Assembly: GCF_016717175.1 (NCBI RefSeq)
Contig: NZ_JADKFZ010000004.1
DNA from: Nannocystis sp.
GTDB lineage: Bacteria; Myxococcota_A; Polyangia; Nannocystales; Nannocystaceae
Direction: 5' to 3' (one strand)
Length of the DNA stretch: 64,000 nt
Shown here: one piece after another, positions 1,299 to 32,567 of the stretch
Layout of the letters: each line of letters starts with the position of its first letter
Position numbering within the stretch: the stretch's first letter is position 1
Program-made: the position numbers and the translations under genes
Notes under the pieces: generated by a model
What the model saw: the letters and a program-made list of their open reading frames with translations, nothing else
The model's database searches: none
What the model was told of the DNA's origin: nothing

Positions 1299-1373
<75 letters not shown>

Positions 1374-5379: not shown

Positions 5380-5419
5380 GACGGCGCCTCCTTTCGGCTT
5401 GGAACGGGTGGTCGGTGGA

Positions 5420-5626: not shown

Positions 5627-5870
5627 GACGGCCTCCTTCTCGGCGGAGCGATGGATGAATGGACAGAGATAAAGCGCGCAGAGGGAGTTGAACCCTCGCT
5701 TCCTCCGTGGCAGGGAGGCGTGCGGCCACCAGCACCTTGCGCGCAGATCGATGGATCGACGGGTGTGGCCGCGACGGGCCAATGCCGCGGCGAATCGGTG
5801 CCCACGGATATGTGGGCACTTGCGGAGCTGCGACGGCGGGCCGCGGTCCGACGGAGGGCCGATCGAGCGG

Positions 5871-5928
5871 GTGTCCCGATGTCGGGGTGCCCCGATGTCG
5901 GGGTGCCCCGATGTCGGGGGGCGCTCGC
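5871..5928. repeat. 17-bp direct repeat x3 (GTGCCCCGATGTCGGGG)
   Basis: gtgtcccgatgtcggggtgccccgatgtcggggtgccccgatgtcgggg read directly, between the two small minus-strand ORFs. Confidence 0.8.
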
Positions 5929-5946
5929 TCGCTCAGCGAGCGGGGC

Positions 5947-6129
5947 TCATTCGCTGCGGAGGTCGGGGCTGGCCTGCAGGTGATAACCTGTGTGGCCTGG
6001 CGCCGTACCTGCGAACCAGCGACCTCGTCCCGACTCGCTCGCATCGTTCGCGGCGAACAGGCCCTTCGCCTGCACTGGGGCGGCGATCGGGAGCTGGGCG
6101 CGAAGCGGCATGTCGTGGACGGAAAGCAT
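5947..6129 (-). CDS. 60-aa hypothetical protein
   Basis: ATG preceded by AAAGAGGTGAACC (strong SD). An upstream TTGACA hexamer. Located in a ~600-bp stretch otherwise free of convincing ORFs. Confidence 0.45.
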   Translation of the reverse strand: MLSVHDMPLRAQLPIAAPVQAKGLFAANDASESGRGRWFAGTAPGHTGYHLQASPDLRSE

Positions 6130-6190
6130 GGTTCACCTCTTTTACAGGCGGGCAGTGTTCCCGAACGCCGCGCCGCTGTCAAGCACCTGA
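6130..6190 (-). promoter_or_regulatory. putative sigma70-like promoter for the 60-aa ORF (TTGACA -35)
   Basis: Minus-strand TTGACAgcggcgcggcgttcgggAACACT....AAAGAGGTGAACCATG. The -35 is a perfect match; the -10 is weak. Confidence 0.25.
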
Positions 6191-6283
6191 ACGCGACGAT
6201 TGTACGAATGCGGTGATAATTTTGTGGCCGGTCCGCGGGGCCTGCTTATATGCGCACTTTCGTTCTGATGGGTTTGTTCCGGA

Positions 6284-8626
6284 TCAGGGCGGCGCGATGC
6301 GGGCGCGGAGGATGTGGTCGCCGAGGGCGAGGGCGTCCAGGCGATCGGGATGACCGTGCTGGTCTGGGCGCAGGCGGCCGATCCAGGTGTAGCGGCCCTC
6401 GAGGTGCGGGGCGCGGGCGTGCATGAAGAAGAACTGGCTGCCGCCGGTGTCCTTGCCGGCGTCGGCGATGCCGACCGCGCCGCGATCGAAGGCGTGGTCG
6501 CCGGGCTCGCTCGGGAGCACGAAGCCGGGGCCGCCCCAGCCGTTGCCGTCGGGGTCGCCGCCCTGAAGCACGAAGCCCGGGACGTCGCGGTGGAAGCGGA
6601 GGCCGTCGTAGTAGCCGCGGCGGGTGAGGGCGACGATCTCGGCGACGGCCCAGGGCGCGGCGGTGGGGTCGAGGTCGATCTCGAGGTCGCCGACCTCGGT
6701 GCTGAGGATCCAGCGGATCGGGGCGCCGGGCAGGCTGCGCGGGTCGAGCGGCGGCGGGGGCAGTGCTGCGGCGGTGGCGATCGAGGCGGCGTTGCCCGGG
6801 CCCGGGTCGGGGGCGGTGGCGATCGCGGCGGCGGGGCCCTGGCCCTGGCCGCGGAGCTGCTGCACGCAGGCGCGGGCGGCCTTGCGGACGGCGGGGCTGG
6901 CGTGGGCGCGGCTGGCCTCGCAGACGGGGAGACCGGCGGCGACACCGGTGGCCGCGAGGGTGGCGAGGAGGGTGCTGTGCAGCTCGGGCTCGCGGGCGGC
7001 GTGGGCGGTGGCGAGGGCGGCGAGGCGCTGCCACAGCGGATCGCTGGCGGCGAGGAGCGATGGCTTGGCGTGGGTCGGTGGCTTGTCGTGCGGTGCGGCG
7101 ATCACATCGGCGGCCGATCCGACGACGCCGAGGACCGGGTCGGCGAGGGCGCGCAGCAGCCAGGCGTGGACGATCGTGGTGGTCGCGGGGTCGTGCCACA
7201 GCGGGCCGAGAGCGGCGACGGCGGCGAGGCGCAGCTGTGGATCGGTGGCGGTGAGGAGCGCGTCGAGCCGGGCGGCGCGCGCGGGCCAGGGGCCGCCGAA
7301 GCCGTGGATCAGCGGGCCGAGCTCGTGGGCCTCGCGCTCGCCGGGGCGCAGCAGCGGGCTCTGGCAGACGAGCGGCGGGCGCCAGCGCGGGTCGTGGGCG
7401 AGGCGCGCGGCGAGCAGGCAGTCGATGCGGGCGAGCAGGCGACGACGAGCTTCGCGGCGGGCGTCGTCGAGGTTGGCTGCGTTGGTGGGTGGGTTCGTGG
7501 GCGAGTTGTTGTTGGTCGCGGTGGGTGGGCTCGTTGGTGTGTTGTTGTTGGTCGTGGCGGGTGGGTTGATCGGCGAGTTGTTGGTGGTCGTGGTGGTGTT
7601 GCGATCGATCGCGGTGCGCAGCTGCTCGAGGGCGTGGCGCTCGCGGATCGAGGGGGCGGTGGTCTCGCTGGCGAGGCACGCGAGGGCGGCGTGGAGCTGG
7701 CGGGCGTGGGCGAGGCGCTGGGGCTCGTCCTGCGTGCGGTCGGCGATGCTGCTGCGGGCCCAGGCGAGGACGGCGAGGACGGCGGTCTGGCGATCGGGGG
7801 CGATGAGGGCGGCGAGGCGGCGCGGGTCGCTGGCGGCGGCGGGCAGCTCGCGGGTGAGGCAGGCTTGCAGCGGCGGTGTGGCGCTGCGGCGGACCAGGCC
7901 GGCGAGGGCGAGGCGCTGGAGCTCGCGGTCGCTGCTGCGGGTGTGGTCCCGCAGGAGGGCGAGGATCGACGGATCGGGGGGCGGCGTGTGCTCGTTGGCG
8001 AGGGCGTAGAGGGCGGCGTAGGTGAGCGCGGGGTCGCTGGCCAGGGCGAGGAGGTTGGCGCGGGTCGGGGCGTCGAGCGGGTGCTTGCGGCGACCGAGCA
8101 CGCCGAGGGCGATCGCGGCGGTGCTGCGCAGGGCCGGGCTCGCGGTCGGGGCGAGGGCGTCGCGCAGGACGGGCAGAGATGCGGGGCCTCCGAGGCGGCC
8201 GAGAGCCTCGGCGATGGCGCGGCGCTCGTCGGCGTCGGCGCGCGGCCAGGCGGTGAGGAGGGCGGCGTCGAGGTCGGTGAGCTCGGTGTCGAGGAGGGCG
8301 GCGATGCCGAGCGCACGCGCGGCGTGCTCGCGTCGGCGAGGATCGTCGCCGCGGAGCAGGGTGAGCAGGGCGGCGATCGCCGGCGGGTCGCCGACGCGTG
8401 CGAGGGCGAGGATCACCGGGCCGGGATCGGGGTCGCCGAGGCGAGCGATGAGGGGGGCGCTGTCGCGGCGCAGCTCGAGCTCGAAGAGGGGGGTCGCGGG
8501 GATCGTTGTCGTGGTTGGGGCGGGGCCGGGGGGCGCGGCGGGGACCTGCGGGGGCGCAGCGGGGACCTGCGGGGGCGCGCAGGCGAGCAGGCAGCTCAGG
8601 GTCGTGAGGGCGAGGGCCGGGCGCAT
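6284..8626 (-). CDS. HEAT/ARM-repeat lipoprotein with C-terminal cyclophilin-type peptidyl-prolyl isomerase domain
   Basis: Signal/lipobox MRPALALTTLSCLLAC. Long PxxAxxALxxL HEAT-like repeats. C-terminus FHRDVPGFVLQGGDP...GGPGF...GSQFFF matches the cyclophilin signature. Confidence 0.85.
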   Translation of the reverse strand: MRPALALTTLSCLLACAPPQVPAAPPQVPAAPPGPAPTTTTIPATPLFELELRRDSAPLIARLGDPDPGPVILALARVGDPPAIAALLTLLRGDDPRRREHAARALGIAALLDTELTDLDAALLTAWPRADADERRAIAEALGRLGGPASLPVLRDALAPTASPALRSTAAIALGVLGRRKHPLDAPTRANLLALASDPALTYAALYALANEHTPPPDPSILALLRDHTRSSDRELQRLALAGLVRRSATPPLQACLTRELPAAASDPRRLAALIAPDRQTAVLAVLAWARSSIADRTQDEPQRLAHARQLHAALACLASETTAPSIRERHALEQLRTAIDRNTTTTTNNSPINPPATTNNNTPTSPPTATNNNSPTNPPTNAANLDDARREARRRLLARIDCLLAARLAHDPRWRPPLVCQSPLLRPGEREAHELGPLIHGFGGPWPARAARLDALLTATDPQLRLAAVAALGPLWHDPATTTIVHAWLLRALADPVLGVVGSAADVIAAPHDKPPTHAKPSLLAASDPLWQRLAALATAHAAREPELHSTLLATLAATGVAAGLPVCEASRAHASPAVRKAARACVQQLRGQGQGPAAAIATAPDPGPGNAASIATAAALPPPPLDPRSLPGAPIRWILSTEVGDLEIDLDPTAAPWAVAEIVALTRRGYYDGLRFHRDVPGFVLQGGDPDGNGWGGPGFVLPSEPGDHAFDRGAVGIADAGKDTGGSQFFFMHARAPHLEGRYTWIGRLRPDQHGHPDRLDALALGDHILRARIAPP
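7480..7620. repeat. lower-GC ~36-bp tandem repeat x3 inside the HEAT-PPIase gene (encodes an Asn/Thr/Pro-rich insert)
   Basis: ggtgggtgggttcgtgggcgagttgttgttggtcgc-type units encode ...TTTTTNNSPINPPATTNNNTPTSPPTATNNNSPTNPPTNAAN... Confidence 0.7.
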
Positions 8627-8639
8627 CGTCGGCGAGTGT

Positions 8640-8796
8640 ACAGAACAATGTTGCGAGGGACCGCGGGCGAGCGAGAGAACAATGTTGCGAGCGGGATGGG
8701 TTGCGCGGGGTATCGCGGCGGGCGTGCCTGATAGCGCGGTGCGGGGTGCCTGATAGCGCGGTGGCGGCGGCGGGGCGCGCCTGATAGCGTGGGGGC
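8640..8796. promoter_or_regulatory. divergent promoter region with direct repeats: AGAACAATGTTGCGAG x2 and TGCCTGATAGCG(C/T)GG x3
   Basis: Repeats read directly between the divergent HEAT-PPIase gene and the cNMP-binding gene, at spacings of ~38 bp and ~23-31 bp. Confidence 0.4.
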
Positions 8797-9330
8797 ATGG
8801 CGAGGTCGGTGCATATTCTGTCGTTGCTGGACGACAGCGACATCGAGTGGTTGGTGCAGGTCGGGCTGCGCCTGAGCGTGCCGCCGGTGGCTCCGCTGGT
8901 GGAGGAGGGGCTGCGCACGCCGTTTCTCTACATCATTCTTTCGGGGGCCTTTCTCGTGACGCAGAGCGCGACGGGGGCGACGGAGCGGTCGCTGTCGGTG
9001 ATCCAGCGCGGGGAGCTGGTCGGGGAGCTGTCGTATCTCGACGCGCGGCCGCCGTCGGCGACGGTGCGGGCGGCCCGGGCCTCGCAGGTGCTGGCGGTGG
9101 CGCGCTCGGAGGTCGCGCGCAGGCTGCAGACGGACGTCGGGTTCGCGGCCCGCTTCTACCGGGCGCTGGGGATCACGGTGGCGATGCGGCTGCGGGCCCT
9201 GACGCGCGGCGAGCCGGAGGACGAGCCGGACCTCGAGCAGCTCGGGCTGGTGACGGTGGACGAGCGGCGCTTCGAGGCGATCATGCGCCGGCTGGAGGGG
9301 CTCCCAGGCGACGCAGACGCAGCGAGTTGA
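8797..9330 (+). CDS. cyclic-nucleotide-binding domain protein (no DNA-binding domain)
   Basis: [11 protein letters not shown]...RSATVRA is a cNMP-binding beta-barrel signature. 177 aa with no C-terminal HTH. Confidence 0.8.
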
Positions 9331-11818
9331 GCACGACGGTGAGGCTGCTGAGGGCCATCGCCAGGGCGGCGAGGGCGGGGTGGAGCGCGCGCAGGAAGCC
9401 CGGGGCGGCGGCGATCGGGTAGAGGGCGCCGGCGGCCACCGGGATCAGGACGAGGTTGTAGATCGAGGCCCACAGCAGGTTCTGGCGGACCACGGCGAGG
9501 GTGCGGCGCGACAGCTCCAGGGCCTCGGGCAGGCCGCGGAGGTCGCTGCGCATGAGGGTGAGGTCGGCGGCGTGGATCGCGACCTCGGCGCCGCTGCCCA
9601 TGGCGACGCCGAGGTCGGCCTGGGCCAGGGCGGGGCCGTCGTTGATGCCGTCGCCGACCATGCCGACCGGGCCGTCCCGCTGGAGCGTGACGATCGCGGC
9701 GGCCTTGTCGGCCGGGAGCACGCCGGCGATCACGTCGGCGGCGGGGATGCCGGCCTGGGCGGCGATGGCGATGGCGACCTGGCGGTGGTCGCCGGTCAGC
9801 ATGAGCACGCGCAGGCCGGCGCGGCGCAGGGTGGCGACGGCCTCGGCGGCCTCGGGGCGCAGGGCGTCGGCCAGGGCGAGCAGGCCGAGCAGGGCGCCGT
9901 CGCGGGCCAGCCAGACGAGGGTCTGCGGGGCCTGCAGGGCGGCGGCGGGGAGGGCGAGGAGGGCGGGTGTCGCTTGGGACAGGTGGGTGGGCGCGGGTGA
10001 GGGTGTCTCTTGGGACAGGTCGATGGTGGGCGCGGGGGAGGGTGGTTCTTGGGGCAGGTCGGTGGTGGATGTCCCGGCGGACAGGTCGGGTGTCGCTTGG
10101 GACAGGTGGGTGGCGGCTGTCCCGGGGGACAGGTTTGATGTCTCTTGGGACAGGTTGATCGTGGCGCTGGCGGTGGCTGTCCCGGCGGACAGGTCGGCGG
10201 CGAGGGCGGTGAGGGCGGTGGTGTCGACGTGGTTGCTGGTGAGCCAGCGTTCGCTGCCGATGAGGAGGTCGTGGCCGTCGACGCGGGTGCGCAGGCCGTG
10301 GCCGCCGACGGCGCGGAGGCTGTCGCTGGCGGGGAGCGCCTGGCCGGCGTCGCGGGCGGCGCTGACGATCGCGCGGGCGAGCGGGTGCTCGCTGCGCTGC
10401 TCGGCGGCGGCGGCGAGGCGGAGGAGCTCGCGCGGGTCGACGCCGGGGGCGGGCGCGAGGGCGCTGAGCGTGGGGCGGCCGCGGGTGAGGGTGCCGGTCT
10501 TGTCGAGGACGAGGGTGCGCAGGGCCTGGGCTCGCTCGAGCGCGGCCATGTTCTTGAACAGGACGCCGCGGCGGGCGGCGGCGCCGGTGCCGACGACGAT
10601 CGCGGTCGGGGTGGCGAGGCCGAGGGCGCAGGGGCAGGCGATCACGAGGACGGCGACGGCGCGCAGGAGGGCCGCGCCGGCGCCCTGGTCGGCGAGCAGC
10701 CACCACAGCGTGAAGGTGAGGCCGGCGAGGGCGAGGACGACGGGGACGAACACGGCGGCGACGCGGTCGACCAGGCGCTGCACGGGGGCCTTGCTGGCCT
10801 GGGCGGCGCGGACGAGGCGGACGATCTGGGCCAGGGCCGTGGCTGCGCCGACGCGGGTGGCCTCGATCTCGAGGGCGCCGTCGCCGTTGACGGTGGCGCC
10901 GGTGACGGGGTCGCCGGTGGTCTTGCCGACGGGGCGGCTCTCGCCGGTCAGCATGCTCTCGTCGACCTCGGAGGCGCCGCTGCGGACGACGCCGTCGACC
11001 GGGATCGCGGCGCCAGGGGCGACCAACACGGTGTCGCGGACCCGGACCTCTGCGGCGGGGATCTCGAGCTCGTGGCCGTCGCGGCGGACCCGGGCGGTGG
11101 CGGGGCGGAGCGCGAGCAGGGCCCGGATCGCGGCGCCGGCCTGGCCGCGGGCGCGGGTCTCGAGCAGGCGGCCGACGGCGACGAGGGTGACGATCGCGGC
11201 GGCGGTCTCGAAGTGGACGTGGTGGCCGAGAGCGTGGCTGCCGAGGGACTCGGCGACGACCACCGGGACGCTGGCGAGGAAGGCCACGCCGGCGCCGAGG
11301 CTGATCAGGACGTCCATGGTGGCGGCGCGGGCCTTGAGCGCGTGCCAGGCCCCGCGCAGGTGCGGCGCGCCGGTGTAGGCGAGGACCGGCAGGGCGAGCG
11401 CCAGCATGAGCCACAGGAGCCACGGGGCGGCCGTCCAGGCGCCGAGCAGGTCGAAGTCGCGGCCCATGCCGAGGACCATCAGCGGGGCGGTGCAGGCGAT
11501 CCCGACGAGGACGCGGCGGCGCTGACTGGCGAGCTCGGCGGCGCGGGCCAGCAGCTCGGCATCGTCGCCGCCCTCGCTGCCCGCGATCACGCTGTAGCCG
11601 GCGGCCTCGACGGCGGCGACCAGCTCACCGCGAGTGACTGTGCCGGGGGTCGCCAGGTGCACGCGGGCGGTCTCACTGGCGAAGTTGACGGCGGCCGCGG
11701 CGACGCCGGGGACGCTGGTGAGCGCGCGTTCGACGGTGTTCGCACAGTTGGCGCAGCGCAGCCCGGCGATCGCCAGCTCGAACTCGGGGTCGTCGGCGGC
11801 GGGCACGGAGCCGAGCAT
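9281..11818 (-). CDS. copA: heavy-metal (Cu+-type) P1B-type ATPase with N-terminal HMA domain
   Basis: [19 protein letters not shown], transmembrane CPC (IACPCALG), [15 protein letters not shown]. Carries an in-frame repeat insertion at 9960-10200. Confidence 0.8.
9960..10200. repeat. in-frame tandem repeat array (~24-27 bp units carrying GGGACAGGT/ACCTGTCCC) inside the P-type ATPase nucleotide-binding region
   Basis: gggtgtcgcttgggacaggtgggtgg...gggtgtctcttgggacaggtcgatgg... encodes (DLSAGT/HLSQAT/NLSQET...) repeats between LLIGSERWL and the [10 protein letters not shown] segment. Confidence 0.8.
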
Positions 11819-16437: not shown

Positions 16438-17856
16438 TCAGCCGCGCCGCATCAGCAGCAAGTACGCCGCGCCGGACACCAGGACCCCCGAGAACCACGC
16501 CCCCTGGAACAGGAACAGCGCGCCAGGGATGAGCTTGCCGGCGAGGACGACGGCGACGCCGAGCAGCATCGCGGCGATGGCCTTGAGGTTAAATCCACGG
16601 GTATAGCGATAGGGGCCGCGGCTGTCGTAGAGGCCGTCCAGGTCGAGCTGGGTGCGGCGCAATAGCCAATAGTCGGCGAGCAGGACGCCGCTGACGGAGC
16701 CGAGCAGGCCAGAGTAGCTGACGAGCCAGCCGATGTACATATCGAGGACCAGCCAGGGGCAGAGCAGGACGCCGAGGACGGCGGCGATGAGGCCGCCGCT
16801 GCGGAACGAGACGCGGCGGGGGAAGGCGCTGGCGATCGAGTTGGCCGGGCCGACGACGTTGGCGGCGATGTTGGTGGATAAGGTGGCGACGGCGAGTGTG
16901 AACATTGCGACGAAGGCGAGCAGGGGGCTATCGGCGTCGTGGGCCAGGCGGACGACGAGGTCGACGGGGTTCCAGATCGCGTGGCCGTAGAGCAGGACGG
17001 TGGCGGAGGTGACGGCGACGCCGATGAAGCTAAACAGCAGCATGGTGGTCGGCAGGCCGTAGAGCTGGCCGAGCAGCTGCTCGCGCTGGTCCTTGCAGTA
17101 GCGGGTGAAGTCGGGGATGTTGAGCGAGAGGGTGGCCCAGAACCCGACCATGGCGGTGAGGCCGGGGAGGAACACGTGGATAAACCAGGACAGGCCGCTG
17201 TACTCGGATTCAGTGACGAGGCTCGCTGAATGGGCGAGGATCGTGCCGAGGCCGCCAGCGGCGCTGACGGCCCAGCCGAGCAGGGCGAGGCCGACGACGA
17301 TGAGGAAGGGGGCGGCGAAGTTCTCGAGCCATTTGATTGAGTCGGTGCCGCGCCACACGAACACGACGTTCATGAGCCAGAAGGCGACGAAGCAGATCCA
17401 GCTCGGGAGGGTCAGGCTGATGAAGGTCGCGCCGCCGCCGAGGGTGAGCCATCCGGGCCAGAGGATGCCGACCATGGCGGAGATGGCTTGGCCGCCGATA
17501 TACGTCTGGATGCCGAACCAGCCGCAGGCGACCAGGGCGCGGGCGAGGCTGGGAATGTGGGCACCGAATACGCCGAAGGAGGCGCGGGCGAACACGGGGA
17601 AGGGGACGCCGTAGCGGGTGCCGGCGTGGCCGCAGAGGATCATCGGCACCAGCACGACGAGGTTGCCGAGCAGGATCGCCAGCATGGCCTGCCACCAATT
17701 CATGCCGCTGTCGACCAGCGAGGCGGCCATCATGTAGGTCGGGACGCACACGGCCATGCCGACCCACAGGGCGGCGAGGTGCCAGCGGTTCCAGGTCCGC
17801 TCGTCGGGGCGCGTGGGCGCGAGGTCGGGGTTGTGGAGGACCGGGTCGGTGGTCAT
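16438..17856 (-). CDS. NCS1-family nucleobase/allantoin/thiamine-type permease
   Basis: 12-TM profile. WNRWHLAALWVGMAV...GQLYGLP...NIAANVVGPANS are NCS1 hallmarks. A duplicated start region leaves the alternative start at 17898. Confidence 0.85.
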   Translation of the reverse strand: MTTDPVLHNPDLAPTRPDERTWNRWHLAALWVGMAVCVPTYMMAASLVDSGMNWWQAMLAILLGNLVVLVPMILCGHAGTRYGVPFPVFARASFGVFGAHIPSLARALVACGWFGIQTYIGGQAISAMVGILWPGWLTLGGGATFISLTLPSWICFVAFWLMNVVFVWRGTDSIKWLENFAAPFLIVVGLALLGWAVSAAGGLGTILAHSASLVTESEYSGLSWFIHVFLPGLTAMVGFWATLSLNIPDFTRYCKDQREQLLGQLYGLPTTMLLFSFIGVAVTSATVLLYGHAIWNPVDLVVRLAHDADSPLLAFVAMFTLAVATLSTNIAANVVGPANSIASAFPRRVSFRSGGLIAAVLGVLLCPWLVLDMYIGWLVSYSGLLGSVSGVLLADYWLLRRTQLDLDGLYDSRGPYRYTRGFNLKAIAAMLLGVAVVLAGKLIPGALFLFQGAWFSGVLVSGAAYLLLMRRG

Positions 17857-17898
17857 TGGCGCGCTGCGCTCGTGGTGGAGGACCGGGTCGGTGGTCAT
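17833..17898. repeat. 42-bp in-frame tandem duplication of the permease start (MTTDPVLHHERSAP | MTTDPVLHNP...)
   Basis: gtggaggaccgggtcggtggtcat occurs at 17833-17856 and 17875-17898, so two in-frame ATGs with near-identical first 8 codons. Confidence 0.85.
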
Positions 17899-17930
17899 GG
17901 CATACGCTCGTGGTGGCGGACCGGGGATGG

Positions 17931-18671
17931 TCATGGGCAGTTCTGGACCGGGAGGTCGGTGACCTGCATCGGCTCGCTGGCGGGCACCCAGGGCATGTCC
18001 TGCGGGAAGTCGAGGGTGAGGTCGAGGTCGACTGTGTGCGGGCAGCCGAGCATCGGGTCGATGATGAAGTCGACGGTGCCGGCGCCGGCGATCGCGGCGA
18101 CGCCCATGTTGCCAGGCATGCCGTCGAGGCAGCCGGCGACGCCCTGGGTGATGTTGGCGTTCTGGGCGCCCCACTCGGCGGGGGCGACGATCTTGAGGTT
18201 GGGGTCGCCTTGCGTGGGGTGGGCGACGTGGAGCGTGGTGCAGCGATCGTTCACCACGTCGGCCTTGTGGATCAGGACGTGGTCGAGGCCGCCGGCGAAG
18301 AAGAAGGCGACGTACTGGGCGTCGGGGTCGACGCCGGTGGTGGTGTCGGTGGTGCTGGTCGTGGTGCTGGTCTCACCGGTGGTGCTGGTCTCACCGGTGG
18401 TGGCGTCGCTGGTGGCGGCGTGGGTGGTGATGCTGGCGTGCGTAGTGGCGAGGCCAGTGTCGTGGCCGGTGTCGTGGCCGCTGTCGGTGGTGGTCGACGG
18501 GGTGGTGTCGCTCGAGAGCGGGCTGGTCGGGACGTCGCCGGTGTCGTCGGGGGTCGTGGTGACGTCGGTGGCGCCGGCGGTGCTGCTGGTGCCGGCGGTC
18601 TCGCCGGTGCTGTCGGCCTTGTCGGGGCCGCAGGCGGCGAGGAGGGGCAGAACCAGGAGAAGGCGAGTCAT
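17931..18671 (-). CDS. lipoprotein with Thr/Ser-rich linker and C-terminal Cys-containing domain
   Basis: MTRLLLVLPLLAACGPDKAD lipobox. Linker has TTGETSTTGETSTTTSTTDTTTG repeats. Folded-looking C-terminal ~120 aa. Confidence 0.65.
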   Translation of the reverse strand: MTRLLLVLPLLAACGPDKADSTGETAGTSSTAGATDVTTTPDDTGDVPTSPLSSDTTPSTTTDSGHDTGHDTGLATTHASITTHAATSDATTGETSTTGETSTTTSTTDTTTGVDPDAQYVAFFFAGGLDHVLIHKADVVNDRCTTLHVAHPTQGDPNLKIVAPAEWGAQNANITQGVAGCLDGMPGNMGVAAIAGAGTVDFIIDPMLGCPHTVDLDLTLDFPQDMPWVPASEPMQVTDLPVQNCP

Positions 18672-18729
18672 GAGCCCGGGTGTACGCCGGGCGGCCGCGG
18701 GCTGTCCACGGGGCCGACGAAGCAGGACG

Positions 18730-19142
18730 TCAGGGGCACACGCAGCGGACCTTGTCGCCGCCGTTCGGGACCTTGCCGGTCTGGCCGCAGTCGAGGTCGT
18801 AGCGGGCGCCGGTACAGCGTTGGGCGCCCTTCCCGTCGGGGCTGCAGGCGGAGTACATCTCGACGCAGCCGTCGCCGAGGCCGGGGCGCGGGTGGAGGTC
18901 GCGGTGGCCGGCGAGCGGAGGGGGCGGGGCGGCGGGCGGTGGAGTTGGTGGGGTTTCGGCGAGCGGGGGTGGGGGTGTCGGAGGCGTCGGTGGGGTTTCG
19001 GCGATTGGGGGTGGTGGTGTCGGAGGCGTCGGGGGGTGGGTGCGGTCGGGGGTGTCGGTGGCGTCGGGGCGGCGGGCTTGGTCGGCTCGGTCGGGGCGGT
19101 GCAGGCGAGGAGCAGGGCGCCGAGGAGGAGGAGGCGGTGCAT
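18730..19142 (-). pseudogene. small Pro-rich lipoprotein with 6-Cys C-terminal domain, split by an apparent 1-nt frameshift in a C6 run
   Basis: Signal MHRLLLLGALLLAC in one frame from ATG 19142. The C-terminal GCVEMYSACSPDGKGAQRCTGARYDLDCGQTGKVPNGGDKVRCVCP lies in the +1 frame ending at 18730. The frames join if the run acccaCCCCCCgacg has one extra C. The DNA carries (TPPTPP) repeats. Confidence 0.5.
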
Positions 19143-19190
19143 GGTGGGACGATAACCTGGGTGGGAGCGCGGGCGGTGGGGCACGGGCCG

Positions 19191-19272
19191 GGGTGGGGGG
19201 GGGGGGGGGGGGGGGGGGCGGGGGGGGGGGGCGGGGGGGGGGGGGGGCCCGGGGGGGGGGGGGGGGGGGGGT
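19191..19272. repeat. ~80-nt near-pure poly-G (poly-C on the minus strand) homopolymeric tract
   Basis: gggtgggggg gggggggggg ggggggggcg gggggggggg gcgggggggg gggggggccc ggggggggggggggggggggg read directly. Lies 50-130 nt upstream of the minus-strand lipoprotein start at 19142. Confidence 0.95.
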
Positions 19273-19618
19273 GGGGCCCTGGGGCCCGGGGGCCCGGGGG
19301 CGCCGCCCCGCGCCGCGGGGGGCCCTCCGGCGCGCGACGCCTCCGCTAAAGGCAAGGCGGTCGGCGTCGCCGAGAGCCGGCCCCACCCCGGCCCTGAATG
19401 GGGTGACGTCGCTGCGCGGTATGTAGCAGCGAATGCGACGGGTTGCACTCGATATGTCGCATTGCTGTGAGCCTCGAAGCGCTCACCGTTCAATGCACTC
19501 AAATGGGTCCGGGGCAGTCCTGCGGAGCGTCCGTGTCGGGCGCGCACATTGCTGTCGGGCCCATGTCGCCGCAACAATCGTCGTGGCTGCAGAGGATGCA
19601 ACTCCATTCGAAGCAGGC

Positions 19619-19832
19619 CGTGATGCGTCCAATGTGAATGAGTTGTGGTCGCCGTGTGGCACCTTTCGTTCCTGTCCGAAGAGGCAGGTTGCGAGTCTCA
19701 GGCCGGGGCGGGCCTCGGCGACGCCGTGATGCATGCAATGTGAATGAGTTGTGGTCGCCGTGTGGCACCTTTCGTTCCTGTCCGAAGAGGCAGGTTACGA
19801 GTCTCAGGGCCGGGGCGGGTCCGGCCTCGGCA
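19619..19832. repeat. 107-bp tandem duplication (2 copies) of a lower-GC element
   Basis: gtgatgcgtccaatgtgaatgagttgtggtcgccgtgtggcacctttcgttcctgtccgaagaggcaggttgcgagtctcaggccggggcggg... repeats from 19726 with ~6 mismatches. Copy 2 ends in the hairpin GGCCGGggcgggtCCGGCC. Confidence 0.9.
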
Positions 19833-20013
19833 GGGCCGACCGTACCGTCCTTTAGCGGAGGCTTCGCTTGCCGGAGGGCCGACGGGGGGGTCGACCGAGT
19901 CAAGGGGCGCCGTGGAGAACGAAGTTCTCCAAAGGCGAACCCGCCCTGTCTGAGGCCCTGACCCCCGTCGGACATCCGGCTTCTCGAGGATACGCGCGCG
20001 CCCGCCGGACCCG

Positions 20014-20170
20014 CCCCGGTCCGTGCCACGATACTCGCGGAGTCCTGCTGTGATAGCGAGGATACTCGCGGAGTCCTGCTGTGATAGCCCGGTCCGTGCC
20101 ACGATACTCGCGGAGTCCTGCTGTGATAGGCCGGTCCGTGCCTTGATATTCGCGGACCTGCGATAGCGAG
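20014..20170. repeat. 41-bp tandem repeat (~3.5 copies), lower-GC
   Basis: cccggtccgtgccacgatactcgcggagtcctgctgtgatag repeated, last copy degenerate. Immediately 3' of the cbiX stop on the minus strand. Confidence 0.85.
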
Positions 20171-20180
20171 GGGTCGGCCT

Positions 20181-21789: not shown

Positions 21790-21892
21790 CGGTGGATCGC
21801 GGATCTGGCGGTGGGCGGGTCGTGTCTGGCAGGCGGCGGATCGGCGTGCGGTGTGCAGGAGCGGGTGGATCGCGGATCTGGCGGTGGGCGGG
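21790..21892. repeat. ~35-bp direct repeat (74-bp period) immediately upstream of the lipoprotein start at 21903
   Basis: gagcggtggatcgcggatctggcggtgggcggg recurs as gagcgggtggatcgcggatctggcggtgggcggg. Confidence 0.7.
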
Positions 21893-25589: not shown

Positions 25590-26451
25590 GTGCGCCGCCT
25601 CGCCTGTCTCTGGCTCGCCTCCTCGCTGATCGCGGTGGGCGGGCCGGCGCGCCCGCTGCACGCGGCGCCGGTCAGCGAGCGCGCGGCCGATGTGCCGCTC
25701 GCGGTCGAGGGACCTGCGCCAAAGGACAGGTCGGGAGAGGCTGGCGCGGAGGACAGGTCGGCTGGCTCCGGGGTCGGGGTCAGCTGGCCCGGAGGACAGG
25801 TCGGGAGAGGCTGGCCCGGAGGACAGGTCGGGGTCGGCTGGCCCGGAGGACAGGTCGGCTGGCTCTGGGGACAGGTCGACGCCGCGGTCGGCGGCCGAGG
25901 GGATGCCCGCGGCGCCGCGGGTGCCGGCGCCGACGGCTGCGATCAAGGATGGGGGCCCAGAGCTGGTCACGGTGGCGGTCGGGCTCGGGCCCTCGGCGCC
26001 GGGCTCGAAGGCGGAGACGGCGGTGGTCGACGCGCTCGAGCGCGCCGCCCGGGCCTCGCAGGCGCCGCCGACGCTGGTTCGCCGCCTGCGGGCCGGGGCG
26101 GGCGAGGGGCGGGCGATCTGCCGCGAGCGTCGCGACGACCTGGTGCTGCTGCTCGAGTACATGCCCGATCGACCCGAGCCGGTGTTGGTGCCCCGGGACT
26201 GCCGCCTCGACCGTGAGCTGGCGCTCCGGGGGAAGGAGGCCGCAGGTGAGCCGGCCCTCATCGGCGTACTGTGGGAGGAACATCGGGCGCTCGTCCGCGG
26301 CGGGGCCCGCGAGCGCAAGGTGAGGATCAGCCGCAAGGTGAAGACGGGCCTCATCGCTGGCGGGGCGATCGTGGTCGTCGGGCTGGCGATCGTGCTGGTT
26401 GTGGTCAACAGCTTGCGCCGCGAGACGGTCGTGCTCACAGTGGGGCCATGA
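25590..26451 (+). pseudogene. secreted repeat protein with C-terminal TM helix; apparent 1-nt frameshift in a G4 run within the repeat array
   Basis: Signal (V)RRLACLWLASSLIAVGGPARPLHA in the frame starting 25590. The downstream part (PEDRSGEAGPEDRSGSAGPEDRSAGS...VLVPRDCRLDRE...IAGGAIVVVGLAIVLVVV) is in the next frame (track ORF 25690..26451). The frames join if tccGGGGtcgggg loses one G. The stop overlaps the next gene's ATG (ATGA). Confidence 0.5.
25720..25875. repeat. 27-bp tandem repeat array with AGGACAGGTCG core (5-6 copies)
   Basis: ...ggaggacaggtcgggagaggctggcccggaggacaggtcggggtcggctggcccggaggacaggtcggctggctctggggacaggtcgac... Units are multiples of 3 except for one 43-bp unit. Confidence 0.85.
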
Positions 26452-27491
26452 CGCTTGCGGCACGTTTCGGGCGCTGGTTCATTTCTTTGTCCCTCGCGCT
26501 CGTGGCGGCTGTATTGCTGTACGTGGGGCTGTTCGTGGGGCTGTTCGTGGGCCCCGTCGGGGTGGCACACGCGGAGTCGGGCACGCTGGCGGGCTGGCAG
26601 CTGTCGACGGCGAGCAGCGAGCTGATCGTCGGGCGGGTGACGCTGCGCTACGACCCGAGCCTGGCCGACGAGGCGCGCGAGCTGGCGGACTACATCCCGG
26701 GCTCGTGGCGGGAGATCGAGAAGGCGCTGGCCGGCGACCTCGACGACCGGCTGACGATCAACTTCGTGGCCCACGCGGGGCGCATCGCCGAGGGCACCGG
26801 CATGCCGCGCTGGGCCGCCGGGGTGGCCCACTCGGAGAGCGGGGAGATCGTGATCTCGAAGCACGCGCCGGACGGCTCGCTCAGCGACCTCGACTCGCTG
26901 CTGCGCCACGAGATGGCCCACGTCGCCCTGTATCGGGCCACGGGCGGGCAGGAGCTGCCGCGCTGGTTCCACGAGGGCGTGGCCGAGAGCTTCGGCAACG
27001 AGATCGATCTGCTGCGCAGCCAGACCCTCGCGGGCGCGGTGTTCGGGCCCGGCGTGCCGGCGCTCGATCAGCTCGAGGACAACTTCCACGGCATCGACCC
27101 GATCGCGGTCACGGTGAGCTACGCGGCGGCCCGCGACTTCGTGAACCACCTCCGCTACCGCGACGACGGCTCCGACCTGCGCCAGCTGATGACCGAGCTG
27201 CGCCGCGGCACCAACTTCGAGGCCGCGTTCGTCAAGGCCTTCGACCGCAGCCTCGGGGAGCTCGACGGCGAGTGGCGCAGCGGGCTGACGGGGCGCTTCG
27301 TGTGGTTCCCGGTGATCAGCTCTGGCGGGCTGCCCTTCGCCGCCCTGTCGCCGCTGGTCGTGATCGCGGCGGTGCGTCGGCGTCGCCAGCTGAAGGCCGG
27401 CTGGGACCGCCTGAGCCGCGAGGACGAGGCGCTGCACGCCGAGGTCGCGGCGGTGCTGCGCCGGCCCGGGCTGGTGCTGGCGCCGTCCTGA
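26448..27491 (+). CDS. HExxH zinc-metallopeptidase-like membrane-anchored protein
   Basis: N-terminal TM (FISLSLALVAAVLLYVGLFVGLFVG), HEMAHVALY...HEGVAESFG (HExxH + downstream E), C-terminal TM. Confidence 0.65.
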   Translation: MTLAARFGRWFISLSLALVAAVLLYVGLFVGLFVGPVGVAHAESGTLAGWQLSTASSELIVGRVTLRYDPSLADEARELADYIPGSWREIEKALAGDLDDRLTINFVAHAGRIAEGTGMPRWAAGVAHSESGEIVISKHAPDGSLSDLDSLLRHEMAHVALYRATGGQELPRWFHEGVAESFGNEIDLLRSQTLAGAVFGPGVPALDQLEDNFHGIDPIAVTVSYAAARDFVNHLRYRDDGSDLRQLMTELRRGTNFEAAFVKAFDRSLGELDGEWRSGLTGRFVWFPVISSGGLPFAALSPLVVIAAVRRRRQLKAGWDRLSREDEALHAEVAAVLRRPGLVLAPS

Positions 27492-28309: not shown

Positions 28310-29527
28310 ATGATCGACCTACCCACCAACGCTCGCGCCGGCATGCTGAGCTCGTCGCCCACTCTGGCGATCTCCGCCCGTGCGGGCGAGCTGCGGGCGC
28401 AGGGCAAGGCGGTGCTCAACTTCAGCGCTGGCGAGCCCGACTTCCGCCCGCCGGCCGCGGTCACGGCGGCGCTCACCGAGTTCCTGGCCACGCGGCCGGT
28501 GCACTACACGCCGGTCGCGGGGATGCCCGAGCTGCGTGACGCGGCGGCGGCCGAGCTCGGTCGCTACCACGAGCGGCCGGTGCTGCGGAGCGAGCTGCTG
28601 GTGTCGTGCGGGGCCAAGCACAGCCTGGCCAACCTGTTCATGGTGACGCTGGCGCCGGGCGACGAGGTCGTGATCCCGGCGCCGTACTGGGTGTCGTACG
28701 TGGACATGGTGAAGCTCGGGGACGGCGTGCCGGTGGTCGTGTCGACCCGGCGCGAGGACGGGTGGCGCCTGCAGCCGGACGATCTGGCGGCGGCCCTGAC
28801 CCCGCGGACGCGCTTCGTCGTGATCGGCAACCCGACCAACCCGACGGGCGCCGGCTACAGCGCGGCGCAGCTGCGGGCGCTCGGCGAGGTGATGGCCCGG
28901 GTGGCGCCGCAGTGCTGGCTGCTGGTCGACGACATCTATCGCCGGCTGGTGTACGGCGACTTCGTGCACGCGAGCGCGTTCACGGCGCTGCGCGGGGTGA
29001 CGGAGCAGATCGTGGTGATCGACGGGGTGTCCAAGAGCTTCGCGATGACGGGCTACCGCATCGGCTTCATGCTCGCGCCGGCGAAGGTGGTCGCGGCGGC
29101 GTCGCGGCTGCAGGGGCACGTCACCTCGGGCGCGGCGACAACCTCGCAGGTGGCGGCCCTCGCCGCGCTGCGCGACCCGAGCTGCGAGCCGGCGGTGCAG
29201 GCGATGCACGCCGCCTTCACGCGGCGCCGCGAGTTCATGCTCGCGGGGCTGCAGGCGCTGCCGGGGGTCGACACCTTCGCGCCGGACGGGGCCTTCTATT
29301 TGTTCGCGGACATCTCGCGCCACCTCGGGCCGGGCACGCCCTTCGCGGACGATCTGGCGCTGGCGACCTGGTTGCTCGAGCAGAAGCTGGTGGCGACGGT
29401 GCCGGGCACGGCCTTCGGCACGCCCGGGTTCCTGCGCATCTCGTATGCGACCGACGACGAGAGTCTGCGGGCCGGGCTTGTGCGGATCGGCGAGGCGATC
29501 GGCGGGCTGGCGACGGCGCGGGCCTGA
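28310..29527 (+). CDS. class I/II pyridoxal-phosphate aminotransferase (aspartate/aromatic aminotransferase-like)
   Basis: LNFSAGEPDF, NPTNPTG, PLP-lysine motif SKSFAMTGYRIG, and a 406-aa length typical of AspC-family. Confidence 0.85.
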   Translation: MIDLPTNARAGMLSSSPTLAISARAGELRAQGKAVLNFSAGEPDFRPPAAVTAALTEFLATRPVHYTPVAGMPELRDAAAAELGRYHERPVLRSELLVSCGAKHSLANLFMVTLAPGDEVVIPAPYWVSYVDMVKLGDGVPVVVSTRREDGWRLQPDDLAAALTPRTRFVVIGNPTNPTGAGYSAAQLRALGEVMARVAPQCWLLVDDIYRRLVYGDFVHASAFTALRGVTEQIVVIDGVSKSFAMTGYRIGFMLAPAKVVAAASRLQGHVTSGAATTSQVAALAALRDPSCEPAVQAMHAAFTRRREFMLAGLQALPGVDTFAPDGAFYLFADISRHLGPGTPFADDLALATWLLEQKLVATVPGTAFGTPGFLRISYATDDESLRAGLVRIGEAIGGLATARA

Positions 29528-29619
29528 GGTCTCGTCGCGGCGCGGCGGAGCTCGTGCCGCTCGTCGGCGAGGCGATCGGCGGGCTGGCGACGGCGCGGGC
29601 CTGAGGTCTCGTCGCGGCG
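29489..29619. repeat. 76-bp tandem duplication (2 copies) spanning the aminotransferase stop codon
   Basis: cggcgaggcgatcggcgggctggcgacggcgcgggcctgaggtctcgtcgcggcg occurs at 29489-29543 and 29565-29619. The second copy re-encodes the C-terminal GEAIGGLATARA* in another frame. Confidence 0.85.
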
Positions 29620-29623: not shown

Positions 29624-31381
29624 TCAGACGCGGGCGTCGGTCTCGAACAGGCGCTCGAGCTCGTCGGCGGACTGCTTGGCGTGGGCGATCAGGGCCTGCT
29701 CGTTGTCGCGGAGGGTGAATTGCTCGGCGAGGACGCGCTCGTCCCAGCGGCGGAAGGCGAGGGTGAGCTCGTGGGCGTCGGCGCGGCCGAGCTCGGTGAG
29801 TGCCTGCTCGGCGAGCTCGAGGCTGGACACGAGGGTCTCGCGGATCACCGTGTCGGCGCCGGCGGCGACGAGCGCGTGGTTGTGCTGGCGGTTGCGGCTG
29901 CGGGCGAGGATCCGCAGCTGGGGGAAGTGCTGGCGCGCGTGCTGGACGATGTGGAGCGCGGCCTCGGTGTCGTCGACGGCGACGATCAGGAGGCGGGCCT
30001 TGTGGGCGCCGGCGGCGTGGAGCAGGTCGAGGCGGGCGGCGTCGCCGTAGAAGATCTTGCTGCCGTAGCGGCGCACGAAGTCGATCTGGGTCGGGCTGAC
30101 CTCGAGCGCGGTGAAGCCGACGCGGGCCATGCGGAGCACGCGGGCGACGATCTGACCGAAGCGGCCGAAGCCGGCGATGATGACCCCGTGGGCCTCGTCG
30201 ATGGTGTCGAAGGGGCGCGGATCTGCGGCTGTCTCTCGGGACAGGCGGTCGCGCAGCAGGAAGAGCAGCGGGGTGGTGACCATCGACAGGGTGACGACCA
30301 GGATCAGCATGTCGGCGGTCGGGCGGTCGAACACGCCGGCCGCGATCGCGGCGCTGCAGACGACGAAGGCGAACTCACCGCCCTGGGACAGGGCGATAGC
30401 GAGGTCGAGGGCGCCGTGGCGCGGCAGCTTGAAGACCAGGCGGCCGAGCACGAGCACGGCGAGCAGCTTGACGGCGACCAGCGCGAGGACCAGGCCGGCG
30501 AGGGTGAGCGGCTGCTCGGCGAGCAGGCCGAGGCGGGCCGACATGCCGACGGCGACGAAGAAGAGGCCGAGCAGGAGGCCCTTGAAGGGGTCGATGTCGG
30601 CCTCTAGCTGGTGGCGGTAGGGCGAGTCGGCGAGCAGCACGCCGGCCAGGAAGGCGCCGAGGGCCATCGACAGGCCGACCTGTTCGACGAGGATCGCGGT
30701 GGCGAGGACGATGAGGAGGGCGAGCGCGGCGGAGAGCTCGCGGATGCGGGTGCCGGCGACGACGCGGAACAGCGGGCCGAGCAGGTAGCGGCCGGCGAAC
30801 ACGAGGCCGACGATGACGCCGAGGGCGAGGCCGACCTGGGCGAGGCCGCTGCGGCCGGCGGCCTCGGCGGCGCGGGCCGTGCCGAGCAGGGGGAGGACGG
30901 CGAGGAGCGGGCTGGCGGCGACGTCCTGGAACAGGAGGATGCCGAACGCGGCGTGGCCGTGAGGGGTGGCGAGGCTGTGGCGGTCGGCGAGGATCTGCAG
31001 GACGATCGCGGTGGACGAGAGGGCGAGGGCGAGGCCGGTGACGATCGCGGCGCTCGGGGGCAGGCCGAGCAGCCAGGCGAGCGGCGCGAGCAGGACGGCG
31101 CTGACGGCCACCTGCAGGCCGCCGTACTCGAACACCTGGGCGCGCAGCTGCCACAGGCGGGCGGGCTGCAGCTCGAGGCCGACGAGGAACATGAGCAGGA
31201 CGACGCCGAGCTCGGCGAAGTGGAGGGTCGAGTCGACCTCGTGGATGAAGCCGAAGCCGGAGGGGCCGATCGCCACGCCCGCGGCGAGGTAGCCGAGCAC
31301 GGCGCCGAGGCCGAGGCGCTTGAACACCGGGACCGCGACGACGGCAGCGGCGAGGAAGATCGTGGCCTGGGCGAGCTGCAT
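29624..31381 (-). CDS. kefB: CPA2-family K+/H+ antiporter with C-terminal TrkA-N (KTN) domain (KefB/KefC-type)
   Basis: MQLAQATIFLAAAVVAVPVFKRLGLGAVLGYLAAGVAIGPSGFGF matches the KefB N-terminus. Na/H-exchanger TM core. C-terminus has GVIIAGFGRFGQIVARVL Rossmann. Start taken at the downstream ATG (31379-31381) of a duplicated start region. Confidence 0.8.
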   Translation of the reverse strand: MQLAQATIFLAAAVVAVPVFKRLGLGAVLGYLAAGVAIGPSGFGFIHEVDSTLHFAELGVVLLMFLVGLELQPARLWQLRAQVFEYGGLQVAVSAVLLAPLAWLLGLPPSAAIVTGLALALSSTAIVLQILADRHSLATPHGHAAFGILLFQDVAASPLLAVLPLLGTARAAEAAGRSGLAQVGLALGVIVGLVFAGRYLLGPLFRVVAGTRIRELSAALALLIVLATAILVEQVGLSMALGAFLAGVLLADSPYRHQLEADIDPFKGLLLGLFFVAVGMSARLGLLAEQPLTLAGLVLALVAVKLLAVLVLGRLVFKLPRHGALDLAIALSQGGEFAFVVCSAAIAAGVFDRPTADMLILVVTLSMVTTPLLFLLRDRLSRETAADPRPFDTIDEAHGVIIAGFGRFGQIVARVLRMARVGFTALEVSPTQIDFVRRYGSKIFYGDAARLDLLHAAGAHKARLLIVAVDDTEAALHIVQHARQHFPQLRILARSRNRQHNHALVAAGADTVIRETLVSSLELAEQALTELGRADAHELTLAFRRWDERVLAEQFTLRDNEQALIAHAKQSADELERLFETDARV

Positions 31382-31486
31382 CCCGGCGGTGATGGTTACG
31401 CGAGCTCGCGGGCGGCGGCGAGGAAGATCGTGGCCTGGGCGAGCTGCATCCCGGCGGTGGTGATTACGCGAGCTCGGGGCGGGCGC
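31351..31486. repeat. 68-bp tandem duplication (2 copies) at the bioB stop / kefB start junction, creating a 17-codon uORF
   Basis: gcggcgaggaagatcgtggcctgggcgagctgcatcccggcggtgatggttacgcgagctcg repeated from 31419 with ~4 mismatches. The upstream copy encodes MQLAQATIFLAAARELA* (31396..31449, minus). Confidence 0.9.
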
Positions 31487-32567
31487 CGAGGACGGGGAGG
31501 CGGCGGACCGGCGCACGGGGGGAAGCGGCCGCTGCGGCGAGCTCGGGGCGCGGGGCGCCGCAGACGGAGCCCTCGAGGCCGAGCTGGGCGAGCATGTCGA
31601 GGTCGTCCTGGACCGAGCGGTTGGGGGTGGTGAGGAAGTCGCCGATCATCATGCCGGAGGCGCCGGCGCTGAAGATGAGCGGCTGGAGCTGGCCGAGGTG
31701 CTGGCGGCCGGCGGCGATGAAGATGTTCTGGCGCGGGAGGGCGAGGCGGAAGCAGGCGATGATGCGCAGCATCTCGAGCGGCTGCAGCGGCTCGGAGCGG
31801 GCCAGGCGGGTGCCGTCGACGCTGACGAGGAAGTTGATCGGGACCTCGTCGACGTCGAGGGCGCGCAGGTCCATGGCCAGCTCGGCGCGGTGCTCGGGGC
31901 GCTCGCCCATGCCCATGATGCCGCCGACGCAGGTGCGCAGGCCGAGCTCCCTGGCGTGGCGGATGGTGGCGATGCGGTCGTCGTAGCTGTGGGTGGTGAC
32001 GACCTCGCCGAAGTAGCCGCGGCCGGTCTCGAGGTTGTGGTTGAACTCGGTCATGCCGGCGTCCTTGAGCCGCTGCAGGCCGGCCTTGCTGACGAAGCCG
32101 AGCGAGGCGTGGGCCTCGGTGAAGCCGGCCTCACGCACGGCGCGGATGCCCTCGACCATGTGCTCGAGCGCGCGGGAGCCGTCTTCGTAGCCGCGGGTGG
32201 CGGTGACCAGGCCGAGCGCGCTGGCCCCCTGGGCCTGGGCGCGCAGGCTGGCGCTGACCATCTGATCGTGCGTGAGGAATTTTTCGGCGCTGACGCCGGT
32301 GTCGAAGTGCTTCGACTGGGCACAGAAGCCGCAGTCCTCGGGGCAGCCGCCCTGCTTGGCGTTGACGATCGAGCACAGGTGGACGTGGTTGCCGAAGCGC
32401 CCGCGGCGGACGCGGTCGGCGGCGGCGATGAGCTCCCAGGTGTCGTGCTCACCGGCGAGGTAGCGGGTCAGGCTGGCAGCGTCGAGCGCGTCGAGCTCGC
32501 CAGCGAGGACGCGATCGGCGATCGCGTGCGGGGCGGGGAGATCGAGGGGCCGCGCTTCATGCTGCAT
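31464..32567 (-). CDS. bioB: biotin synthase
   Basis: Radical-SAM CSIVNAKQGGCPEDCGFC (CxxxCxxC), a YNHNLET-type motif, and biotin-synthase length. Confidence 0.9.
   Translation of the reverse strand: MQHEARPLDLPAPHAIADRVLAGELDALDAASLTRYLAGEHDTWELIAAADRVRRGRFGNHVHLCSIVNAKQGGCPEDCGFCAQSKHFDTGVSAEKFLTHDQMVSASLRAQAQGASALGLVTATRGYEDGSRALEHMVEGIRAVREAGFTEAHASLGFVSKAGLQRLKDAGMTEFNHNLETGRGYFGEVVTTHSYDDRIATIRHARELGLRTCVGGIMGMGERPEHRAELAMDLRALDVDEVPINFLVSVDGTRLARSEPLQPLEMLRIIACFRLALPRQNIFIAAGRQHLGQLQPLIFSAGASGMMIGDFLTTPNRSVQDDLDMLAQLGLEGSVCGAPRPELAAAAASPRAPVRRLPVLGARPELA

Follow-up and report, generated by a model that had tools for sequence, protein, structure and literature searches.

Repeated start codons of an NCS1 permease gene: a probable lineage-specific local duplication in a 64-kb Nannocystis window

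The NCS1 start region and its counterparts in relatives

The window, by which we mean the whole 64-kb stretch of Nannocystis DNA that was analyzed (G+C 70-80%), carries on its minus strand a gene for an NCS1 nucleobase:cation symporter and, upstream of it, a gene for a lipoprotein-like protein, with a short array of repeats lying where the two genes meet (Table 1). The NCS1 protein matches Pfam PF02133 with E = 2e-119 over positions 5-438 of the 440 in the profile, and it scores 378 bits against TIGR00800 (cut-off 353), a profile that starts 8 codons past the ATG at 17856. The genes that most resemble the NCS1 gene come from Nannocystis genomes and MAGs. No strain closer than 93% amino acid identity was found at this locus, and the exact protein, read from each of three possible starts, is not on record in the assembly collection.

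The first-pass annotation of this DNA had reported a 42-bp in-frame duplication of the NCS1 start region that yields two alternative in-frame ATGs. Reading the minus strand directly, we find that the duplication is genuine and in frame, but that the exact repeat covers 24 of the 42 nt and that the ATGs number three (17934, 17898, and 17856) rather than two, the third belonging to a degenerate copy that we call copy A. All three are in frame with the intact NCS1 gene, and the two upstream ones, 17898 and 17934, give proteins of 486 and 498 aa. In minus-strand order, the region reads CTGCCC ATGACCATCCCCGGTCCGCCAC CACGAGCGTATGCC / ATGACCACCGACCCGGTCCTCCAC CACGAGCGCAGCGCGCCA / ATGACCACCGACCCGGTCCTCCAC AACCCCGAC... 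The 24-nt head, ATGACCACCGACCCGGTCCTCCAC, has exactly two occurrences, both on the minus strand and 42 nt apart, at 17898-17875 (copy B) and 17856-17833 (copy C); with up to 3 mismatches allowed, the number of chance matches to it expected from 100 dinucleotide shuffles is 0. TRF describes 17833-17936 as a repeat with a period of 42, 2.7 copies, 85% matches, and a score of 132. Neither the head nor the spacer CACGAGCGCAGCGCGCCA occurs again elsewhere in the 64-kb window, and a scan of metagenome contigs gave no match to the 24-nt head.

Set out by codons (5' to 3'), the array reads CAG AAC TGC CC[ATGA]CC ATC CCC GGT CCG CCA CCA CGA GCG TAT GCC on the copy A side, ATG ACC ACC GAC CCG GTC CTC CAC CAC GAG CGC AGC GCG CCA in copy B, and ATG ACC ACC GAC CCG GTC CTC CAC AAC CCC GAC CTC GCG CCC from copy C onward. 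The lipoprotein gene ends in a TGA (17933-17931) that forms, with the copy A ATG (17934-17932), a 4-nt overlap, ATGA. Relative to copy B, copy A has been shortened by 2 nt and by 4 nt, each of which would shift the frame alone and which jointly preserve it, and its decay consists of one substitution and the two small patches that bring about this shortening. What copies A and B share is the head plus 8 nt at the beginning of the tail (P ~0.006 for the similarity of the tails). The 18-nt tail of copy B matches the 18 nt that follow the head in copy C, the NPDLAP codons, at 9 of 18 positions, which is not significant (P ~0.09-0.17), and we therefore rejected a reading of this spacer as a diverged copy of those codons. 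Codon usage is poor in copy A (GC3 7/12 vs ~0.9 for genes) and good in copy B; the codon-usage signal of the NCS1 gene begins near 17901, which corresponds to copy B rather than copy A.

Table 1. Coordinates of the NCS1 locus and of the companion repeats in the window
Feature	Position	Strand	Remarks
NCS1 nucleobase:cation symporter gene	16438..17856	-	472 aa from the conserved start
Copy C head, ATGACCACCGACCCGGTCCTCCAC	17833..17856	-	Contiguous with NPDLAP..., the start of the NCS1 core
18-nt spacer (tail of copy B), CACGAGCGCAGCGCGCCA	17857..17874	-	HERSAP codons; without counterpart in relatives
Copy B head	17875..17898	-	24/24 identical to copy C; in-frame ATG 17898-17896
Copy A, degenerate, 36 nt	17899..17934	-	ATGACCA-TC-CCCGGTCCGCCAC + CACGAGCGTATGCC
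Upstream lipoprotein-like gene	17931..18659	-	MTRLLLVLPLLAAC...; TGA stop 17933-17931
Divergent intergenic repeat	21790..21892	.	Two ~33-nt heads, 72 nt apart; ends 11 nt before ATG 21903
Stop-codon counter-example	29487..29619	+	Two identical 56-nt heads, 77 nt apart
kefB tandem duplication	31343..31492	-	68 nt, 2.2 copies, 92-94% identity

The DNA of the four closest relatives (L081, L082, L083, and L002) holds a single head, and the spacer has no counterpart there. The NCS1 proteins of L081 and L082 are 93% and 89% identical to that of the window, and those of L081 (P0001), L082, L083, and L002 start MT(P)PDP[IL]LHN... at the position of copy C. Among the closest proteins in a collection of 5.8 billion, P0001 (93% identity) begins MTPPDPILHNPDLAPTRPDERTW, and P0002-P0004 and P0007 begin MTPDPILHNPDL... 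In L081 and L082, the ATGA overlap of the lipoprotein gene sits straight on the single head. The lipoprotein/NCS1 gene pair with its 4-nt overlap is thus found in L081 (9267-10004 and 10001-11455) and L082 (429-1145 and 1142-2575), and also in L001, a member with P0005 and P0006 of a sister group that has a longer N-terminus (M..DLVEL..PPDDPVL) and a single GACCCGGTCCT; L001 has kept the ATGA overlap and lacks the NCS1 spacer. Since the relatives have a single copy, lying on the ATGA overlap in two of them, sequence comparison marks the 78 nt of copies A and B as an insertion that arose in the window's lineage alone and ATG 17856 as the conserved start. Copy A together with ATGACCACC could be taken for a remnant of the long N-terminus of L001, as both measure 45 nt from the ATG to GACCCGG; we rejected this reading, since in L081 and L082, the closest relatives, it is the short form that sits right at the ATGA overlap. 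Among the relatives, the N-terminal tail may be no more than MERSPDL... or may exceed 30 residues ahead of NPDL, and with variation of about 30 residues among relatives, the N-terminal tail of the NCS1 family is evidently tolerant.

Repeat arrays in the rest of the window and at other NCS1 loci

Two further events, at kefB and at 21790-21892, had been described as being of the same kind as the one at NCS1. For kefB we agree: a 68-nt tandem duplication includes the ATG and 13 codons of the gene. The unit spans the last codons and TAA of an upstream bioB-like gene, a 14-nt spacer, and the kefB start, so that the duplication repeats the original stop-to-start geometry; the 68-nt copy is clean, with CTCGSCGCC-like strings on its flanks. 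One result of the duplication is an upstream ORF of 17 codons (MQLAQATIFLAAARELA*); its stop is the duplicated TAA, and the real kefB ATG, at 31381, follows 14 nt later. An independent metagenome contig (L084; 96.3% nucleotide identity over 2.1 kb) carries the same kefB duplication with the upstream ORF intact, and the duplication is therefore no assembly artefact and arose before the two strains diverged. The repeat at 21790-21892 is likewise a lineage-specific local duplication, L081 having one head and no spacer, but it contains no start codon and stops 11 nt short of one.

Duplications also lie across stop codons. Each head of the repeat at 29487-29619 takes in the final 13 codons and the TGA of a neighbouring aminotransferase-like gene together with the next 15 nt, and the duplication is absent from the 96%-identical L084, which makes it a very recent event. 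Further duplications run across stop codons at 51318-51387 and 34848-34883, with two more, at 45776-45894 and 54916-54951, in 3' gene ends. The arrays in the window that touch a start are those of NCS1 and kefB and possibly those at 26516-26551 and 49682-49720. Each array is made from its own local sequence, and the units are unrelated to one another in sequence and in length (10-106 nt).

We compared 49 arrays in the window with random placement: 47 reported by TRF (period at least 10 nt, at least 1.9 copies, at least 85% matches) and two spaced repeats, with copies 72 and 77 nt apart (1.4 and 1.7 copies), that were found by eye and by a repeat search. The gene map came from a codon-usage log-odds caller (48 genes, 87% coding) and is crude, with starts accurate to some tens of nt. 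Gene interiors hold 26 arrays where 38.2 are expected (p = 1e-4). Intergenic arrays number 9 vs 3.8 expected (p = 0.011), arrays within 30 nt of a stop only 7 vs 2.7 (p = 0.017), and junction arrays, which touch both a stop and a start, 4 vs 1.2 (p = 0.03), while start-only arrays, at 3 vs 3.2, are not enriched. Seven of the 23 arrays outside gene interiors touch a start, which is not above the share of space. The period is divisible by 3 in 23 of the 26 interior arrays vs 11 of the 23 elsewhere (Fisher p = 0.004). With other thresholds, start-touching arrays reach 1.5-2.4 times the expectation, stop-touching arrays 2.4-3 times, and intergenic arrays 2.5-4 times; at stricter thresholds, starts including junctions become nominally enriched (7 vs 2.95, p = 0.02), less so than stops. 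A similar but weaker pattern is seen in 157 kb of related high-GC loci. Array density in the window is about twice that of the related loci (0.77 vs 0.40 per kb), which hints at a raised duplication rate in this lineage.

Start-codon duplications are also present at NCS1 genes of two unrelated lineages. L020 has its own, of 18 nt in two copies, where its sister L023 has one copy, and L038 has one of 51 nt in 2.1 copies across a TAAATG junction; both are independent events built of unrelated sequence. Across 81 NCS1 loci, arrays occur at the start no more often than in the background, and the bin at the 3' end is higher.

History of the NCS1 array and the explanations compared

In our assessment, the array is a lineage-specific local duplication of the NCS1 5' end, of an ordinary kind and fixed as harmless, a reading to which we assign a probability of roughly 0.8. 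The ancestral gene would have resembled that of the closest relatives, reading ATGACSCC(C)GACCCGRTCCTCCAC AAC CCC, with its ATG overlapping the TGA of the lipoprotein gene. In the most economical history, the head would have been copied together with an 18-nt spacer, and the unit of head and spacer would then have been copied again, which would have moved the conserved start 78 nt (26 codons) away from the ATGA overlap. A second copying of this kind would account for the identical heads of copies B and C and for the CACGAGCG that opens both spacers. Copy A, as the oldest, would have decayed subsequently. Neither gene is damaged, because the downstream copy retains the native start and the first copy retains the native stop/start overlap, and whichever of the three ATGs is used for initiation, the permease would be functional, its N-terminus 0, 14, or 26 residues longer. 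Two features count against this explanation. The head-spacer-head arrangement is not a clean tandem copy, with 9 differences in the tail vs 0 in the 24-nt head, too uneven a distribution for simple divergence, and the array density of the window is about twice that of related loci.

As for where translation begins, none of the three NCS1 ATGs has a Shine-Dalgarno-like purine run in front of it. Termination-reinitiation coupling requires an overlap or a very short distance between the genes, and about 20 nt almost abolishes it (PMC10666635). From the missing Shine-Dalgarno-like sequence, the 4-nt overlap kept in relatives, and these published distance limits, we infer, weakly, that NCS1 translation probably starts through coupling to termination at the ATGA, by way of the copy A ATG, with 26 extra codons being read. 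The situation resembles the ATGA coupling described by Huber et al. (PMC6728339, PMC10666635) in the canonical 4-nt overlap, present at copy A and in L081, L082, and L001, and in the lack of a Shine-Dalgarno-like sequence; it differs in that the conserved NCS1 start now lies 78 nt downstream of the overlap, and the putative coupling would give an N-terminally extended protein. With a start at the copy A ATG, it would be understandable that the array has stayed in frame through two length changes. The case for it is weakened by the chance of about 1/3 that any one copy is in frame, by the poor codon usage of copy A, and by a codon-usage signal that starts only at copy B.

Much the same evidence bears on whether the extra copies were retained as useful, with the N-terminal extension or the alternative starts tuning the amount, targeting, or turnover of the permease. 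Such a role would fit the three ATGs that stay in frame despite the cancelling 2-nt and 4-nt changes in copy A, the good codon usage of copy B, and the kefB upstream ORF that is intact in two strains. We nevertheless regard it as quite unlikely, given that in-frame copies arise by chance about a third of the time, that copy A does not have the codon usage of a gene (GC3 7/12 vs ~0.9), and that the extension is found in no relative, the extension sequences of L020 and L038 being unrelated to it. Assembler stutter in a GC-rich region is highly improbable as the source of the array. It would be in keeping with the absence of the 24-nt head from the metagenome collection and of the exact proteins from the record, and the same window does hold a suspicious G run of about 90 nt; however, the three copies differ from one another, copy A having diverged and the tails being different, unlike the product of a stuttering assembler. 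In addition, a comparable duplication, at kefB, is reproduced in the independent contig L084, and similar arrays occur in other, independently assembled genomes. The position of the array exactly at the ATGA stop/start overlap, with each unit beginning ATGA, recalls the MIRUs, a dispersed family of related, apparently mobile mycobacterial sequences that insert at start codons with a 4-nt overlap, that is, at a spacing of -4 nt (PMC12548453). The NCS1 array shares with them tandem units of tens of nt, a co-directional junction, a start codon, and a 4-nt overlap that would keep coupling. The NCS1 unit, however, copies its own locus, as the single-copy relatives identify the head as the gene's own 5' end, and it is dispersed nowhere else, being found neither at another place in the window nor in the metagenome collection, while the units of the other arrays are unrelated to it; a small mobile repeat of this type is the least credible of the explanations, and we give it almost no weight. 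A target-site duplication around an inserted element was rejected as well, the "element" being merely 18 nt long and not repeated elsewhere.

The recurrence of short duplications at starts had been attributed in the first-pass annotation to a common mechanism tied to translation initiation, either slippage at initiation-region structure or a site-specific process, with a shared flanking motif as a possible mark. A mutational process that duplicates DNA preferentially at starts could draw on the several arrays in one 64-kb window that touch a start, on the roughly twofold excess of start-touching arrays at stricter thresholds, and on the NCS1 start-codon duplications in L020 and L038. Our census speaks against it: start-only arrays match their expectation, stops and other intergenic DNA are enriched equally or more, and the excess at starts comes from the stop/start junction arrays. 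The survey of 81 NCS1 loci, with start bins at background and a higher bin at the 3' end, agrees with the census. The k-mers at array boundaries are shared no more than at random positions, so that no flanking motif beyond chance emerges, and the units (10-106 nt) have no sequence in common. Slippage at structure finds no footing either, as the NCS1 initiation region, taken as folded RNA, is no better than shuffles (z = -0.02); Rfam has nothing at the array, its sole matches in the window being two tRNAs elsewhere. A start-specific process is thus very unlikely. The best reading of the recurrence at starts is that local duplications arise frequently and everywhere and are then filtered by selection. 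The genome would make many short local duplications, of which those inside genes would be purged unless in frame and those at boundaries or in non-coding DNA would persist; boundary-spanning copies persist because both genes are left intact. The apparent recurrence at translation starts is survivorship.

Three young repeats, those at NCS1, 21790-21892, and 29487-29619, have the form head-spacer-head, with spacers of 18-39 nt that are absent in single-copy relatives. A search within 400 nt on either strand returned no template for these spacers (P = 0.35-0.94), and the NCS1 spacer, the sole one so tested, is not copied from sequence downstream of the head. These repeats could be the scars of an unusually active local duplication in this lineage that leaves untemplated filler of 18-39 nt, with selection then mainly keeping the stop/start geometry and the frame at coupled junctions, a scenario that we consider unlikely. 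Candidate causes would be end-joining of staggered breaks and template switching; possible examples are the NCS1 array, whose two length changes compensate for each other, and the relay upstream ORF at kefB.

Comparison with known repeats and implications

Short tandem duplications and minisatellite-like arrays in bacteria arise by slipped-strand mispairing or unequal recombination. The NCS1 array resembles them in its head-to-tail copies with a period of 36-42 nt, its lineage-specific occurrence, its origin from local sequence, and the decay of its older copies, and the arrays inside genes are, as in minisatellite-like repeats, almost always in frame; it differs in that the newest pair consists of 24 exact nt and an 18-nt spacer rather than a clean 42 contiguous nt. 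Phase-variable contingency loci, known from Neisseria, Haemophilus, and Mycoplasma, have units of 1-9 nt in many copies, lie in 5' coding or promoter sequence, and switch by frameshift. The NCS1 repeats likewise lie at the 5' end of a gene, and their copy number could in principle vary, but there are 2-3 copies of 36-42 nt, and because the unit lengths are multiples of 3, a change in copy number cannot switch the frame; by unit length and copy number, this is no phase-variation locus. A literature search for tandem repeats in Nannocystis found nothing.

For annotation, the array means that gene callers will pick any of the three NCS1 ATGs, of which 17856 is the conserved start, and the kefB upstream ORF is likewise open to miscalling. 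If duplications with filler were a distinct mutational signature of this lineage, their interest for bacterial repair biology would be modest. More generally, duplications that span gene boundaries are automatically harmless, and no special mechanism is needed for them to build up at starts, stops, and junctions, which is why a reader going through the sequence by eye sees "recurrent duplications at starts."

Tandem duplications at NCS1 starts, gene junctions and stop codons

Independent tandem duplications within the N-terminal region of NCS1 genes are found in four loci of other lineages (L020, L023, L026 and L038; see table) and include the start codon in two of the four. In the L038 duplication, a TAA in the first copy reads CAA in the second.

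At the bioB/kefB junction, a 68-nt duplication (31343-31492) is shared with L084, an independent metagenome contig (positions 184-333, 96.3% nucleotide identity), where the 17-codon upstream ORF that arises from it is kept as well. Across the TGA of an aminotransferase-like gene (29487-29619), two identical copies of a 56-nt unit lie 77 nt apart, with a 21-nt spacer between them; this duplication is missing from L084, which is 96% identical, and is therefore very recent. At 34848-34883, a perfect GCGATAACGG array (x3.6) holds the TAA stop of the ORF at 33871-34854 within its first unit, and the next gene starts ~25 nt downstream of that stop.

Coordinates of duplications, repeat arrays and genes in the window and in NCS1 loci of other lineages
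Feature	Locus	Position	Strand
NCS1 N-terminal-region tandem duplication	L020	2878-2913	
NCS1 N-terminal-region tandem duplication	L023	2932-2969	
NCS1 N-terminal-region tandem duplication	L026	2232-2288	
NCS1 N-terminal-region tandem duplication	L038	about 2900-3005	
Small lipoprotein-like gene, proline-rich	Window	18731-19141	minus
42-nt repeats inside this gene	Window	18947-19037	
106 nt x1.9 array, within 18690-20180	Window	19617-19819	
42 nt x3 array, within 18690-20180	Window	20015-20156	
tRNA gene	Window	1300-1373	minus
tRNA gene	Window	5673-5744	minus

The repeat-rich stretch at 18690-20180

This 1.5-kb stretch, rich in repeats, takes the place of 5.4 kb (3856-9248) in L081, a relative with 90% identity; the L081 segment carries genes for an RCC1-repeat protein, an ECF sigma factor and a Ser/Thr kinase. 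In the small lipoprotein-like gene, the signal peptide (MHRLLLLGALLLAC, ATG at 19141) and the Cys-rich C-terminus, which ends in CVCP and a stop, lie in different frames, which implies that a frameshift falls inside the gene's 42-nt repeats (18947-19037) and that this is a pseudogene or a mis-assembly.

At 19185-19300, ~90 nt are nearly all G on the plus strand, which translates to poly-proline in one of the frames of the minus strand; the run sits immediately upstream of a small lipoprotein-like ORF. The run could be an artifact of two-color sequencing or of assembly, or else a true homopolymer tract.

Other repeats in the window

The tRNA gene at 5673-5744 is preceded, at a distance of ~125 nt, by a 16-nt x3.2 array (5869-5919). 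Repeats with GGGACAGGT / TGTCCC motifs at their core occur at four loci (9950-10200, 25714-25875, 45776-45894 and 57231-57381), one of which is an in-frame 39-nt x3.1 array at the 3' end of a gene, with the palindrome GCTGTCCCGGAGGACAGC inside it; these repeats may represent a dispersed motif family.
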